From Escherichia coli (GTDB lineage Bacteria; Pseudomonadota; Gammaproteobacteria; Enterobacterales; Enterobacteriaceae), in NCBI RefSeq assembly GCF_041886205.1, contig NZ_CP169029.1: a stretch of DNA of 64,000 bases, one strand, 5' to 3'. Made by a program: the position numbers and the translations under genes. This document shows, one piece after another, positions 46,270 through 61,736 of the stretch. The notes beneath the pieces were generated by a model. The model made no database searches. It had not been told where the DNA came from and saw nothing but the letters and a program-made list of their open reading frames with translations. Position 1 is the first letter of the stretch; the number at the start of each line of letters is the position of its first letter.

Positions 46270-46511
46270 AATGATCCATATTTATATTTTCTTCTCCAGA
46301 TTGGCGATGCCAGTTGGCATGTTTTACCTACTTGACTACATGGTTACTCGTTGGCGAGAACAGAGGCGGAATTGGGTACAATTGTCCGGGAATTATTGTT
46401 ATTTTTTATTGTATTGCCGTGTCGGGTGATAGGGCGTCGAGAATATCGTTGGATCTCGCCAGTGACGTCTGTTTCTGCTACAGTGCCCGTTTTACGGCAA
46501 ACGGCTTGGGT

Positions 46512-47507
46512 ATGGCTTCATTAAAGGATGTCGCACGCCTGGCGGGAGTGTCGATGATGACAGTCTCCCGGGTGATGCATAATGCAGAATCTGTGCGTCC
46601 TGCAACGCGTAACCGCGTATTGCAGGCAATCCAGACCCTGAATTATGTTCCTGATCTTTCCGCCCGTAAGATGCGCGCTCAAGGACGTAAGCCGTCGACT
46701 CTCGCCGTGCTGGCGCAGGACACGGCCACCACTCCTTTCTCTGTTGATATTCTGCTTGCCATTGAGCAAACCGCCAGCGAGTTTGGCTGGAATAGTTTTT
46801 TAATCAATATTTTTTCTGAAGATGACGCTGCCCGCGCGGCACGTCAGCTGCTTGCCCACCGTCCGGATGGCATTATCTATACTACAATGGGGCTGCGACA
46901 TATCACGCTGCCTGAGCCTCTGTATGGTGAAAATATTGTATTGGCGAACTGTGTGGCGGATGACCCAGCGTTACCCAGTTATATCCCTGATGATTACACT
47001 GCACAATATGAATCAACACAGCATTTGCTCGCGGCGGGCTATCGTCAACCGTTATGCTTCTGGCTACCGGAAAGTGCGTTGGCAACAGGGTATCGTCGGC
47101 AGGGATTTGAGCAGGCCTGGCGTGATGCTGGACGAGATCTGGCTGAGGTGAAACAATTTCACATGGCAACAGGTGATGATCACTACACCGATCTCGCAAG
47201 TTTACTCAATGACCACTTCAAATCGGGCAAACCAGATTTTGATGTTCTGATATGTGGTAACGATCGCGCAGCCTTTGTGGCTTATCAGGTTCTTCTGGCG
47301 AAGGGGGTACGAATCCCGCAGGATGTCGCCGTAATGGGCTTTGATAATCTGGTTGGCGTCGGGCATCTGTTTTTACCGCCACTGACCACAATTCAGCTTC
47401 CACATGACATTATCGGGCGGGAAGCTGCATTGCATATTATTGAAGGTCGTGAAGGGGGAAGAGTGACGCGGATCCCTTGCCCGCTGTTGATCCGTTGTTC
47501 CACCTGA
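46512..47507 (+). CDS. cscR: LacI-family sucrose operon repressor CscR (331 aa)
   Basis: N-terminal LacI HTH (MASLKDVARLAGVSMMTVSRVMHN…) and periplasmic-binding-protein-like effector domain; start taken at 46512 inside the longer track ORF. Confidence 0.86.
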   Translation: MASLKDVARLAGVSMMTVSRVMHNAESVRPATRNRVLQAIQTLNYVPDLSARKMRAQGRKPSTLAVLAQDTATTPFSVDILLAIEQTASEFGWNSFLINIFSEDDAARAARQLLAHRPDGIIYTTMGLRHITLPEPLYGENIVLANCVADDPALPSYIPDDYTAQYESTQHLLAAGYRQPLCFWLPESALATGYRRQGFEQAWRDAGRDLAEVKQFHMATGDDHYTDLASLLNDHFKSGKPDFDVLICGNDRAAFVAYQVLLAKGVRIPQDVAVMGFDNLVGVGHLFLPPLTTIQLPHDIIGREAALHIIEGREGGRVTRIPCPLLIRCST

Positions 47508-47514
47508 TATTATG

Positions 47515-48948
47515 TTAACCCAGTAGCCAGAGTGCTCCATGTTGCAGCACAGCCACTCCGTGGGAGGCATAAAGCGACAGTTCCCGTTCTTCTGGCTGCG
47601 GATAGATTCGACTACTCATCACCGCTTCCCCGTCGTTAATAAATACTTCCACGGATGATGTATCGATAAATATCCTTAGGGCGAGCGTGTCACGCTGCGG
47701 GAGGGGAATACTACGGTAGCCGTCTAAATTCTCGTGTGGGTAATACCGCCACAAAACAAGTCGCTCAGATTGGTTATCAATATACAGCCGCATTCCAGTG
47801 CCGAGCTGTAATCCGTAATGTTCGGCATCACTGTTCTTCAGCGCCCACTGCAACTGAATCTCAACTGCTTGCGCGTTTTCCTGCAAAACATATTTATTGC
47901 TGATTGTGCGGGGAGAGACAGATTGATGCTGCTGGCGTAACGACTCAGCTTCGTGTACCGGGCGTTGTAGAAGTTTGCCATTGCTTTCTGATAGCTCGCG
48001 CGCCAGCGTCATGCAGCCTGCCCATCCTTCACGTTTTGAGGGCATTGGCGATTCCCACATATCCATCCAGCCGATAACAATACGCCGACCATCCTTCGCT
48101 AAAAAGCTTTGTGGTGCATAAAAGTCATGCCCGTTATCAAGTTCAGTAAAATGCCCGGATTGTGCAAAAAGTCGTCCTGGCGACCACATTCCGGGTATTA
48201 CGCCACTTTGAAAGCGATTTCGGTAACTGTATCCCTCAGCATTCATTCCCTGCGGGGAAAACATCAGATAATGCTGATCGCCAAGGCTGAAAAAGTCCGG
48301 ACATTCCCACATATAGCTTTCACCCGCATCAGCGTGGGCCAGTACGCGATCGAAGGTCCATTCACGCAATGAACTGCCGCGATAAAGCAGGATCTGCCCC
48401 GTGTTGCCTGGATCTTTCGCCCCGACTACCATCCACCATGTGTCGGCTTCACGCCACACTTTAGGATCGCGGAAGTGCATGATTCCTTCTGGTGGAGTGA
48501 GGATCACACCCTGTTTCTCGAAATGAATACCATCCCGACTGGTAGCCAGACATTGTACTTCGCGAATTGCATCGTCATTACCTGCACCATCGAGCCAGAC
48601 GTGTCCGGTGTAGATAAGTGAGAGGACACCATTGTCATCGACAGCACTACCTGAAAAACACCCGTCTTTGTCATTATCGTCTCCTGGCGCTAGCGCAATA
48701 GGCTCATGCTGCCAGTGAATCATATCGTCGCTGGTGGCATGTCCCCAGTGCATTGGTCCCCAGTGTTCGCTCATCGGGTGATGTTGATAAAACGCGTGAT
48801 AACGATCGTTAAACCAGATCAGGCCGTTTGGATCGTTCATCCATCCGGCAGGAGGCGCGAGGTGAAAATGGGGATAGAAAGTGTTACCCCGGTGCTCATG
48901 AAGTTTTGCTAGTGCGTTTTGCGCCGCATGCAATCGAGTTTGCGTCAT
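47515..48948 (-). CDS. cscA: Sucrose-6-phosphate hydrolase / invertase CscA (GH32, ~477 aa)
   Basis: GH32 motifs (WMNDPNG, FRDP, EC…P). Track ORF starts at 48957 (MIKMTQ…); start probably at MTQTRL. Confidence 0.9.
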   Translation of the reverse strand: MTQTRLHAAQNALAKLHEHRGNTFYPHFHLAPPAGWMNDPNGLIWFNDRYHAFYQHHPMSEHWGPMHWGHATSDDMIHWQHEPIALAPGDDNDKDGCFSGSAVDDNGVLSLIYTGHVWLDGAGNDDAIREVQCLATSRDGIHFEKQGVILTPPEGIMHFRDPKVWREADTWWMVVGAKDPGNTGQILLYRGSSLREWTFDRVLAHADAGESYMWECPDFFSLGDQHYLMFSPQGMNAEGYSYRNRFQSGVIPGMWSPGRLFAQSGHFTELDNGHDFYAPQSFLAKDGRRIVIGWMDMWESPMPSKREGWAGCMTLARELSESNGKLLQRPVHEAESLRQQHQSVSPRTISNKYVLQENAQAVEIQLQWALKNSDAEHYGLQLGTGMRLYIDNQSERLVLWRYYPHENLDGYRSIPLPQRDTLALRIFIDTSSVEVFINDGEAVMSSRIYPQPEERELSLYASHGVAVLQHGALWLLG

Positions 48949-59704: not shown

Positions 59705-60370
59705 AAACCCTTAGATAGTTCTATTGAGGCAAGTATGTTATAAATCTGCCTTATCTTTTATAGCATATAAAGATATGTATGCTATATTTTTTTGAAGAAA
59801 TTTTTCCAGAAATTACAGTAATACAAGAAATATTAACTGGTGTGATTTTTGGATGTTTAATAAGTACAGTGTACTTATATTTTTGTAATAAAGATGAACG
59901 CGTCCTTTAGATAAACTGAAAATATTAAGCATGTCTCATGTGGTTTTCTGAATCAAAACTCTTTTCAGTCTTTGATTTTTTGTTAAAAACAGGTTTATTA
60001 CAAGGGTGTTGTTGTGAAATGTGTTTTGGTGTCGTTGTGATTTTATGGTGATAATGTGAATTTTTATCCTTTCAAGATGGCTCCCTGGACGTTAAATACA
60101 GTGGAAATTTATATTAAGATATAAATATAACTATTGCGTTATTTAAATTATTGTCTATTACAGCTCCAGTTAATAGAGCCTGAAGTAATTTCTTAGTATT
60201 TCATCATAAGCGTTTATCTATCGTCTCTTTCTAAATTAACCGGTCGTATTACAAGGTGCTGAATCTGATTAAGGAATGATACTTAGGGGATTATGGCTGA
60301 CTTAATAATTAGATAACTGATAAATGACTATCAGGGGGATATCGTTAAGTCAGCCTTTAAAATCAAGCGA

Positions 60371-61561
60371 TTATATAGCTGGTGACTCTTTTCGAAGAGC
60401 ATCAAGGTAGTCAGCGTACCATTGCATCATTTCTCGTCTTCCTTCAAGGTAACGAGCATGGTTGTATGTACCACGAATGCTGTTTTTGTCCGTATGTGCA
60501 AGTTGCATTTCAATCCATGCACTATTGAATCCTTGCTCGTGTAGAACAGTACTCATTGTATGACGAAATCCATGCCCGGTAGCTTTTTTGTCATAGCCAA
60601 TCTTCTTCAAAACCATATTGACGCTTGCATCGCTGATAGGCCTGTTAACATCATTTCTTCCGGCAAAGATGTATCTGTATCTTCCAGTCAGTTCTTTGAG
60701 GATTTGCAGAGACTGGATTGCCTGATCTGACAGAGGGACGATATGCTCCTTCCTCATTTTCATCCGGGTCGGAGGAACTTCCCATATCTTTTGGGTAAAA
60801 TCGATCTCACACCATTCCCCCATACGTAATTCTACTGTTCTCAGCCCTGTGAGCATCAACAATTTTGTAGCTTCACGGGTTACAATACTGCCGGTGTAGT
60901 TTTCGAGTTTGTATAAAAACTCTGGTAGTTCAGGAGGAAGCAGGAAAGGGTAATGTGTTCGCTTATAGCTTTTTATTGCTATAACCAGATCAGAAGCTGG
61001 ATTGTATCGTGCCCGACCTGTAACAATGGCATACCGAAACACTTCACCACATCGTTGGCGAACTTTATTAGCTAGCTCGCAGGCTCCTCGGCTTTCGATA
61101 CGCTGAAGAACTGCGAGAAGTTCAAGAGGTTCGATTTCACTAATGGGTCTGTTTCCAATGTAGGGAAACACATTATTTTTGAATGCTCTGTCGACATAAT
61201 CAGCGTAGCTGGCAGACCAGCCTGAAACTTTTGCGTTGTACCACTCGGTGGCGATTGCGGCAAAAGTTCTTCCTTCGGAAAGGTTTTTCTCAAGATTTTC
61301 AGCTTTCTTGACTTCACCGGGATCTTTACCATCGGCATGTATTTTCTTGGCTTCATCCCGACGTTTGCGAGCTTCAGCCAATGTAATAGTTGGATAGGTG
61401 CCAAATGATAGTTTCTTTTCCTTCCCCGCATAGTGGTACTTCATTCGCCAGTACTTTGAGCCGTTAGGATTGACCTGAAGGTAGAGCCCACCACCATCGG
61501 CAATCTTATAAATTTTATCTTTGGGTTTGGCTGTTTCAACTTGTCGAGCTGTCAGTGGCAT
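60371..61561 (-). CDS. P4-type tyrosine integrase (396 aa)
   Basis: N-terminus MPLTARQVETAKPKDKIYKIADGGGLYLQV… and C-terminal catalytic region (…HGFRHT…) typical of tRNA-targeting P4-like integrases; sits 175 bp from the 3' end of argW. Confidence 0.9.
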   Translation of the reverse strand: MPLTARQVETAKPKDKIYKIADGGGLYLQVNPNGSKYWRMKYHYAGKEKKLSFGTYPTITLAEARKRRDEAKKIHADGKDPGEVKKAENLEKNLSEGRTFAAIATEWYNAKVSGWSASYADYVDRAFKNNVFPYIGNRPISEIEPLELLAVLQRIESRGACELANKVRQRCGEVFRYAIVTGRARYNPASDLVIAIKSYKRTHYPFLLPPELPEFLYKLENYTGSIVTREATKLLMLTGLRTVELRMGEWCEIDFTQKIWEVPPTRMKMRKEHIVPLSDQAIQSLQILKELTGRYRYIFAGRNDVNRPISDASVNMVLKKIGYDKKATGHGFRHTMSTVLHEQGFNSAWIEMQLAHTDKNSIRGTYNHARYLEGRREMMQWYADYLDALRKESPAI

Positions 61562-61736
61562 CTGGGGGCCTCGCAATAGATTGACCAAGATGTGCCCCTA
61601 AATAGGCCCCCAAATGTGACTTGATTTACGTTCCCCTGAGGAGAATTAAGGCGACTATTTGAGTAACATAAGTAAGGGTATGTGCTGATTATAAAGGCTT
61701 TTTGTGGGGTATGGTAGATTTCAGGAGAGGTGTGCA

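Follow-up and report, generated by a model that had tools for sequence, protein, structure and literature searches.

The chromosomal region between the tRNA gene argW and the dsdCXA genes is an already described hypervariable hotspot of Escherichia coli, at which the csc locus for sucrose use replaces dsdC and part of dsdX (PMC4366372, PMC3032704); csc is nearly universal in phylogroup B1 and absent from phylogroups A and F (PMC11251922), and for the csc/argW-dsdCXA region these three papers cite Jahreis et al. 2002 and Moritz & Welch 2006. Strains EC3132, W and O157:H7 EDL933 have the gene order dsdA, dsdX remnant, cscR, cscA, cscK, cscB, located beside argW, and Stx, Sf6-like and Kapi1 phages are also listed in the literature at the argW site. 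The DNA considered here, 64,000 nt of the E. coli contig NZ_CP169029.1 (the window, by which the whole stretch is meant), carries at this hotspot a block of 15.47 kb (46270..61736), with the same csc genes in the same order and, in addition, what remains of an island inserted at argW. Layered events at the hotspot very probably explain this block, which on that explanation has two unrelated parts, the csc locus (46269-51836) and the island remnant (51837-61736). The locus as such is ordinary; the 5.6-kb deletion variant found in the window is, as far as seen, apparently undescribed, but it is a trivial variant.

As for the island, it can be compared with CPS-53 (KpLE1) and the phages Sf6 and HK633, with which it shares the target tRNA gene argW, the orientation of the integrase gene beside the 3' end of the tRNA, and the integrase domain architecture, with 48% amino acid identity. 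Unlike the 15-nt pawZ repeat of K-12, the attachment (att) core of the window's island in the argW 3' end is 19 nt long, and its cargo is not phage-like, with no gtr, tail, replication or torI genes; with CPS-53 in particular, the DNA likeness is limited to 67 bp (78%) in the integrase gene, there is no further DNA homology to intS, yfdG-I or torI, and the far att site is missing in the window. The CP4-type islands of K-12 (CP4-6, CP4-44, CP4-57 and KpLE2) typically hold an antirestriction/RadC(JAB)/DUF987/YeeU(CbeA) module, and they target thrW, ssrA or leuX. Fuller relatives of the window's island, of ~15 and ~41 kb and ending in a 19-bp repeat of the argW 3' end, share with them this module, an Ag43-like autotransporter fragment and IS911::IS30, an IS30 insertion sequence (IS) within an IS911-family element; the window's island also resembles them in the Arm-DNA-bind_3 N-terminal domain of its integrase, and it differs from them by its target, argW. 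Unlike wlxctx60, AMSCJX02 and several drafts, the window lacks the distal CP4-type module and keeps only the IS911::IS30 stump at 51837-52290.

The gene map was drawn from the open reading frames (ORFs) of the window and from the RefSeq (PGAP) annotation of the 100%-identical sequence of strain wlxctx60; tRNA genes were identified by ARAGORN and Rfam, domains by Pfam and NCBIfam, small ORFs were compared with PHROGs and NCBIfam, and DNA alignments were obtained by blastn. The comparators were wlxctx60 (L001), E24377A (L002), K-12 MG1655 (L003), AMSCJX02 (L004), O26:H11 11368 (L005, NC_013361) and 6EVA (L007). Junctions and modules were counted by probes against the 5,426 complete E. coli genomes of RefSeq, a set outside which the drafts lie.

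Aligned with K-12 MG1655, the window matches emrK'-emrY-dsdA and the final 218 bp of dsdX with its positions 42615-46268, and argW-yfdC-mlaA with 61736-63995; between 46268 and 61736, the sole K-12 match is the stretch of 67 bp within the integrase gene. At the corresponding place, the K-12 chromosome carries dsdC, an intact dsdX and CPS-53, a prophage of 10.2 kb. An earlier inspection of the letters alone, called here the sequence-only reading, had described a 15.5-kb block without K-12 counterpart, and its coordinates were right, the homology breaking at 46268 and 61736; the contents that it listed (cscR/A/K/B, IS fragments, an autotransporter, IS3, an AT-rich ORF-free stretch and an integrase beside argW) were all found as well. 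The main parts of the region are:

46051..46269, minus strand: dsdX remnant, ~72 codons from the end of the gene for the D-serine transporter (blastn against K-12, with homology stopping at 46268)
46269..51836: csc block of 5,568 bp, with a guanine-plus-cytosine (GC) fraction of 0.48, 99% collinear with E24377A, in which it abuts an empty argW
51837..61736: island remnant of 9,900 bp, GC 0.419, the entire insertion relative to the state with csc and an empty argW
61737..61811, minus strand: argW, tRNA-Arg(CCT) (ARAGORN, Rfam), whose 3'-terminal 19 nt (61737-61755) are the att core

The tRNA was the only hit of the Rfam scan over 46000-62000 at E <= 0.1.

Regarding the csc part, the block stands in for the argW-proximal spacer, dsdC and the 5' 1.1 kb of dsdX, and dsdA is kept; the 100%-identical dsdX copy of wlxctx60 is labelled by PGAP as 'GntT/GntP/DsdX family permease, missing N-terminus'. 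All four csc genes are intact, in canonical order and orientation:

46512..47507, plus strand: cscR, LacI-family repressor of the sucrose operon, intact (ORF and wlxctx60 annotation)
47515..48948, minus strand: cscA, sucrose hydrolase (invertase), intact (ORF and annotation; same protein accession as in E24377A)
49164..50078, plus strand: cscK, fructokinase, intact (ORF and annotation; protein identical in E24377A)
50150..51397, plus strand: cscB, sucrose:H+ MFS permease, intact (ORF and annotation; protein identical in E24377A)

The left junction, between the dsdX remnant and csc, occurs in 2,687 of the 5,426 complete genomes and the csc right flank in 2,623; in 1,415 genomes, for example E24377A, this flank lies directly against an unoccupied argW. 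The csc part is an old, widespread replacement, carried by about half of E. coli at a frequency like that of the K-12 state, and the arrangement is derived, because a truncated dsdX cannot be ancestral. The possibility that the window shows the common ancestral state of the species, with K-12 as the exception, had been raised together with the sequence-only reading; it is about half true of csc, as common as the K-12 state yet derived, and it does not hold for the island. With respect to the csc strains already described, the csc part of the window has no substantive difference, and what distinguishes the window is that its argW additionally holds an island remnant. From the papers on the region (PMC4366372, PMC3032704, PMC11251922), the expected phenotype would be sucrose-positive by way of csc, with D-serine use lost as dsdC is absent and dsdX truncated; the locus is predicted to confer both phenotypes, sucrose-positive and D-serine-negative, which serve in the typing of E. 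coli and in niche studies.

The limits of the island are given by E24377A, which is collinear with the window over 43000-51836 and then from 61737, with a single base between the two (window 51836 corresponds to L002 8837 and 61737 to L002 8839); as csc and argW are direct neighbours in this strain, the insertion can be set at precisely 51837-61736. Base composition differs between the parts: GC is 0.419 in the island, 0.48 in the csc block and 0.487 in the right flank of the island. The module formed by the integrase gene, the AT-rich stretch and a truncated papB (papB') was found in 239 of the 5,426 genomes, and the AT-rich stretch alone in 238.

The far end of the insertion is preserved in AMSCJX02, and it reads ...GAAGGGTAT C TGGTGTCCCCTGCAGGAAT GAAATTTT..., that is csc flank, one base, the 19-nt repeat of the argW 3' end (TGGTGTCCCCTGCAGGAAT) and island DNA; this junction of csc flank, repeat and island end is present in 170 of the 5,426 genomes, and it is the textbook signature of site-specific integration into argW. 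In wlxctx60, the repeat is found at L001 9193-9211; next to it, on the side of the csc flank, comes a piece of 355 bp with 95% identity to K-12 intS, of which it covers the upstream region and the first ~65 codons (L001 8838-9211, including the argW 3' repeat). This piece, absent from the window, is the relic of a CPS-53-like prophage that would have been at argW before the island came. It meets the csc flank at TGTTGTCTCCTGCAA, which is like the att core TGGTGTCCCCTGCAG at 12 of 15 positions, a resemblance that points to a deletion from attR to a look-alike site within intS. As for the window, the sequence-only reading had found no direct repeat of the argW 3' end by eye, and none appeared when 25-, 19- and 15-nt probes were run over the whole window with up to three mismatches, argW itself being the sole match.

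The island of AMSCJX02, of ~41 kb, is the fullest relative considered. Starting from argW, it has the integrase gene, the AT-rich stretch, papB' and IS3, then genes for an HsdR-N protein, a DEAD-box helicase, an ATPase and a TerB-N protein; it continues with an MFS transporter, an alcohol dehydrogenase, IS66 and IS3 elements, the autotransporter, IS911, IS30 and IS1203, and its distal part consists of the Ag43-like fragment, a DUF932 gene, and the antirestriction, JAB/RadC, DUF987 and YeeU genes. The cluster at L004 5019-15345 (HsdR-N protein, a hypothetical protein, DEAD/DEAH helicase, ATP-binding protein and TerB-N protein), absent from the window, looks like a candidate defence system.

The argW island of O26:H11 11368 shares with the window the module of integrase, AT-rich stretch, truncated papB and IS3, with at least 99.8% identity in the AT-rich part; it differs in its cargo, namely an HsdR-N protein, IS66 elements and an Ag43/Cah adhesin. 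In this strain (L005 21266-41265), a lambdoid prophage with torI, erf, kil and ninB-H lies between argW and the island, and the island integrase has an internal stop; a later phage integration displaced the island from argW. Tandem accretion at argW is evidently routine.

Concerning the integrase, two features make up the island end beside argW:

60371..61561, minus strand: tyrosine integrase of 396 amino acids, intact (Pfam Arm-DNA-bind_3, Phage_int_M and Phage_integrase)
61562..61736, minus strand: integrase upstream region, the island arm beside argW (from the sequence, with the boundary taken from the E24377A alignment)

The gene has the same orientation as argW, with a gap of 175 bp to the tRNA. 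The protein matches NCBIfam PRK09692 (E 5e-86); its identity is 48% to K-12 IntS, in whose alignment the R, HxxR, H and Y positions coincide, and ~48% to the integrases of Sf6 and HK633, so that it is a member of the argW-specific IntS group (the label 'P4-type', given to it by the sequence-only reading, holds for the domain architecture only, as the closest characterised relatives are the argW-specific IntS and Sf6 integrases). In strain RM13745, the integrase region is 96% identical at the DNA level, with IS elements in place of the AT-rich stretch. The annotation of the identical sequence in wlxctx60 shows no excisionase or recombination directionality factor of the AlpA/TorI type, no ORF between IS3 and the integrase gene exceeds 43 amino acids, and the small ORFs match no family; an AlpA gene is located further out in strain 6EVA. 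Because the partner att site is lost and there is no excisionase gene, the island should be fixed and unable to excise: the integrase looks intact, yet the island is predicted to be immobile.

The loss of the partner site is explained by the comparison with wlxctx60, which is 99.96-100% identical to the window except for L001 8838-14437 (5,607 bp), absent from the window; the alignments on the two sides of the gap overlap by 7 bp. The features at the junction are:

51830..51836, plus strand: AGGGTAT, the 7-bp microhomology at the deletion junction (overlapping blastn segments), with copies at the end of the csc flank and, in wlxctx60, in the interior of IS30
51837..51980, minus strand: IS30 fragment with the left inverted repeat (IRL) and the first ~30 transposase codons (from the sequence; a complete IS30 is at the same site of wlxctx60)
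51981..52290, minus strand: left end of an IS911-family element (orfA fragment 51986-52231), host of the IS30 insertion (NCBIfam IS3 family transposase, E 7e-18)

The second copy of the heptamer is 144 bp inside IS30. Because wlxctx60 has a complete IS30 where the window keeps 144 bp, the change is a deletion in the window lineage; it took most of IS30, an IS911 orfB fragment, the zinc-ribbon, antirestriction, JAB, DUF987 and YeeU genes, the 19-nt repeat and the intS relic, and the argW repeat is missing from the window because this deletion between the AGGGTAT repeats removed it. A deletion mediated by IS30 was considered and rejected, since the breakpoint is 144 bp inside the element and not at its end. 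The deletion junction occurs in none of the 5,426 complete genomes; its exact 35-nt string was found in three independent drafts (GCA_011032045.1, GCA_029944795.1 and GCA_000303635.2), with nine further similar places reported. The junction 51836/51837 is no artefact of assembly but a true marker of a lineage.

The junction between IS30 and its IS911 host was also compared with other strains: copies in E. coli C, BL21/BLR(DE3) and many other strains match window 51830-52040 at 99.5% identity. The IS911::IS30 composite is an old unit, common to integrase-bearing islands, and no fresh insertion here.

Taken together, the comparisons suggest the following course of events. A 5.6-kb cscRAKB segment would have replaced dsdC and the 5' 1.1 kb of dsdX, reaching the 3' end of argW. 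An island with an IntS/Sf6-like integrase would later have integrated into the last 19 nt of argW, leaving the integrase gene beside the tRNA and, at the opposite end of the island against the csc flank, a 19-bp copy of the tRNA end. An IS3-associated event may then have lost ~24.6 kb of cargo relative to AMSCJX02; IS30 would have entered the IS911-family element; and the window lineage would have lost the 5,607 bp between the AGGGTAT heptamers, with the IS30 bulk, the antirestriction/RadC/DUF987/YeeU genes, the 19-bp repeat and the CPS-53 intS relic. The window is left with an intact integrase without partner att, a single intact cargo gene (the autotransporter), papB' with its AT-rich upstream region, and IS debris. 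The locus can serve as a clean worked example of a tRNA-site island made immobile, with its integrase intact and its partner att lost; it matters little beyond correct annotation.

In the sequence-only reading, the whole 15.5 kb, csc included, was one tRNA-integrated island later reshaped by IS activity. This description stands for 51837-61736, in which the integrase abuts argW and both IS elements and deletions have left their marks; extended to the whole block it is very improbable. It is true that the entire block is absent from K-12 and that in E24377A-like strains the csc flank runs exactly up to the argW 3' end, but csc is beside an unoccupied argW in 1,415 genomes, its count exceeds that of the integrase module more than tenfold (2,687 against 239 genomes), the GC values differ (0.48 against 0.42), and the 19-bp argW repeat of AMSCJX02 sits between the island and the csc flank, separating the two. 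Even less credence is due to the reverse polarity, in which the window arrangement would be ancestral and wlxctx60-like relatives would have gained 5.6 kb by insertion: a single event is all that separates the two sequences, as they have 99.96-100% identity elsewhere, but a truncated IS30, of which the window has the first 144 bp, is no precursor of the complete one in wlxctx60, and the segment missing in the window holds the att repeat that integration must have made. An assembly error at 51836/51837, in the form of a collapsed repeat, would agree with the absence of the junction from all 5,426 complete genomes; as the 35-nt string recurs in three independent drafts and the two sides share 7 bp, too short to collapse an assembly, this is almost certainly not the cause. 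The layered history itself meets some difficulties. The order of its events is drawn from a handful of comparator genomes and not from a phylogeny. The spacer between repeat and csc flank differs between relatives, with none in AMSCJX02 and 355 bp of CPS-53 intS in wlxctx60, and this calls for either repeated integration of the island or an exchange of flanks through recombination. Finally, the left end of the window-lineage deletion is at most 8 bp from the old att junction, a coincidence beyond the simple microhomology model. Within 8 bp of 51836/51837, three junction partners are in fact found: argW or its repeat (E24377A, AMSCJX02), intS codon ~65 (wlxctx60) and the IS30 interior (window). 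The intS junction is explicable because TGTTGTCTCCTGCAA matches the att core at 12 of 15 positions, whereas the IS30 junction is explained by the heptamer only. It is conceivable, if improbable, that breaks made by the integrase at old att or look-alike sites seed illegitimate deletions; if true, break-seeded deletion would give tRNA-site islands a specific way of losing their att sites and of becoming fixed.

An addition compatible with the layered history concerns an older stage: csc might have displaced the distal end of an earlier CP4-type argW island together with dsdC and 5' dsdX, and the older island would then have been mostly deleted, with the 440-bp csc flank as its sole trace. The features on which this turns are:

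51398..51836: csc right flank, ending 1 bp from the site of argW or its repeat in other strains (E24377A, AMSCJX02)
51493-51694, minus strand: DUF4942 gene relic of ~200 bp, with 72-76% DNA similarity to DUF4942 genes of islands in csc-negative genomes
51799..51823, plus strand: 25-nt motif CTTTTACGGGGTGAAGGTAGATTTC, 76% like 61698-61722 (repeat search; spacing 9,899)

In wlxctx60, the DUF4942 piece is annotated by PGAP as a pseudogene whose C-terminus is missing on the csc side. Such a stage is possible but rather unlikely. In its favour, the DUF4942-like relic is of a gene type found in integrase-bearing islands elsewhere, the last 38 nt of the flank hold the motif that resembles the integrase-proximal arm of the present island, and tandem accretion at argW is seen in wlxctx60 and O26:H11 11368; on the other side, the similarity of the motif is borderline, with a score that the best of 300 shuffles equals, the stretch between the DUF4942 relic and cscB showed no degenerate argW repeat, and 142 bp of the csc flank have no match elsewhere. 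As to the motif itself, both copies are 13-14 nt from the argW junction or island boundary, in the same register, and the local alignment score is 26 (shuffles, 17.4 ± 2.3, maximum 26); the direct repeat is either an old integrase-arm relic in the csc flank or due to chance.

The remaining cargo of the island, from the deletion junction towards the integrase gene, consists of these features:

52297..53090: gene debris, with a RelE-toxin fragment (52297-52404), an alkaline-phosphatase-like piece (52773-52886), a frameshifted hypothetical gene (52885-53090) and IS pieces (PGAP pseudogenes of wlxctx60; blastn to a frameshifted AMSCJX02 transposase)
53265..56762, minus strand: type Va (AIDA-I-type) autotransporter of 1,165 amino acids, intact (Pfam, translation)
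57041..57421, minus strand: IS3-family transposase fragment, of the integrase core domain and interrupted by a stop (as annotated for the identical wlxctx60 sequence)
57728..58985, plus strand: complete IS3 of 1,258 bp, with orfA/orfB and programmed frameshift (ORFs, annotation, sequence)
58952..59107, minus strand: gene of a PapB/FocB-like regulator cut by IS3, with ~41 native codons and its last 10 codons from the IS3 end
59108..60370: AT-rich stretch of 1.26 kb, GC 0.28, with no ORF above 43 amino acids, downstream of the integrase stop and upstream of the papB' start

IS and gene debris together span 51837-53264. The autotransporter has a signal peptide, VID and PATR passenger repeats, an AC_1 autochaperone and a beta-barrel ending in KYRF, with E values of 8e-35 for Pfam Autotransporter, 6e-24 for AC_1 and 1e-96 for TIGR01414, the last above its cut-off. 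It shares the signal peptide, the beta-helical repeats (PATR, VID), AC_1 and the C-terminal 12-strand barrel with AIDA-I, MisL, YfaL/EhaC and ECSE_1600, and it differs from the named AIDA-I-type adhesins in that its passenger has no named family: the protein is below the curated NCBIfam cut-offs of all five families compared (AIDA-I, MisL, YfaL/EhaC, ShdA and ECSE_1600), scoring 498 bits against a cut-off of 2,335 for ECSE_1600 and 277 against 1,200 for AIDA-I, and the likeness is confined to the C-terminal half. Identical copies are on 66 contigs, and its cluster has 6,327 members. It is a common surface protein of E. coli from an unnamed family, and of the whole locus it alone might repay experimental work.

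The complete IS3 is flanked by CAG and ATT, with no 3-bp target duplication, and the 24.6 kb missing relative to AMSCJX02 are missing at its left end. Its junction with papB' is common to all versions seen (wlxctx60, AMSCJX02 and O26:H11 11368); the papB-like fragment matches positions 6-45 of 88 of the PHROG regulator profile.

As for the AT-rich stretch, it is at least 99% conserved in the 238 genomes that have it, and it is never annotated there. It matches no Rfam family, its small ORFs have no PHROG or NCBIfam match, and a distant DNA search returned near-identical unannotated copies only, with no diverged homologue holding a gene; promoter-like sites over 58900-61820 were 11 against a shuffle expectation of 11.3, with no excess. 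We read the stretch as the regulatory region of an operon removed by IS3. A strong terminator-like hairpin, GCCTCCAC-ATATA-GTGGAGGC followed by T7, is located at 59704-59684 on the minus strand, in the middle of the stretch and ~670 bp downstream of the integrase stop; no gene or Rfam family ends at this hairpin (59684-59704). That the stretch codes for an unrecognised small RNA or peptide ending there is a lesser possibility.

Finally, on the dsdA side of the block, emrK, the gene of the EmrKY efflux adaptor, is interrupted by a 1,057-bp IS903-group element (window 41558-42614; terminal repeats GGCTTTGTTGAATAAATC...), whereas the K-12 gene is uninterrupted; the element has a perfect 9-bp target duplication, ACCGGCACG, at 41549-41557 and 42615-42623.

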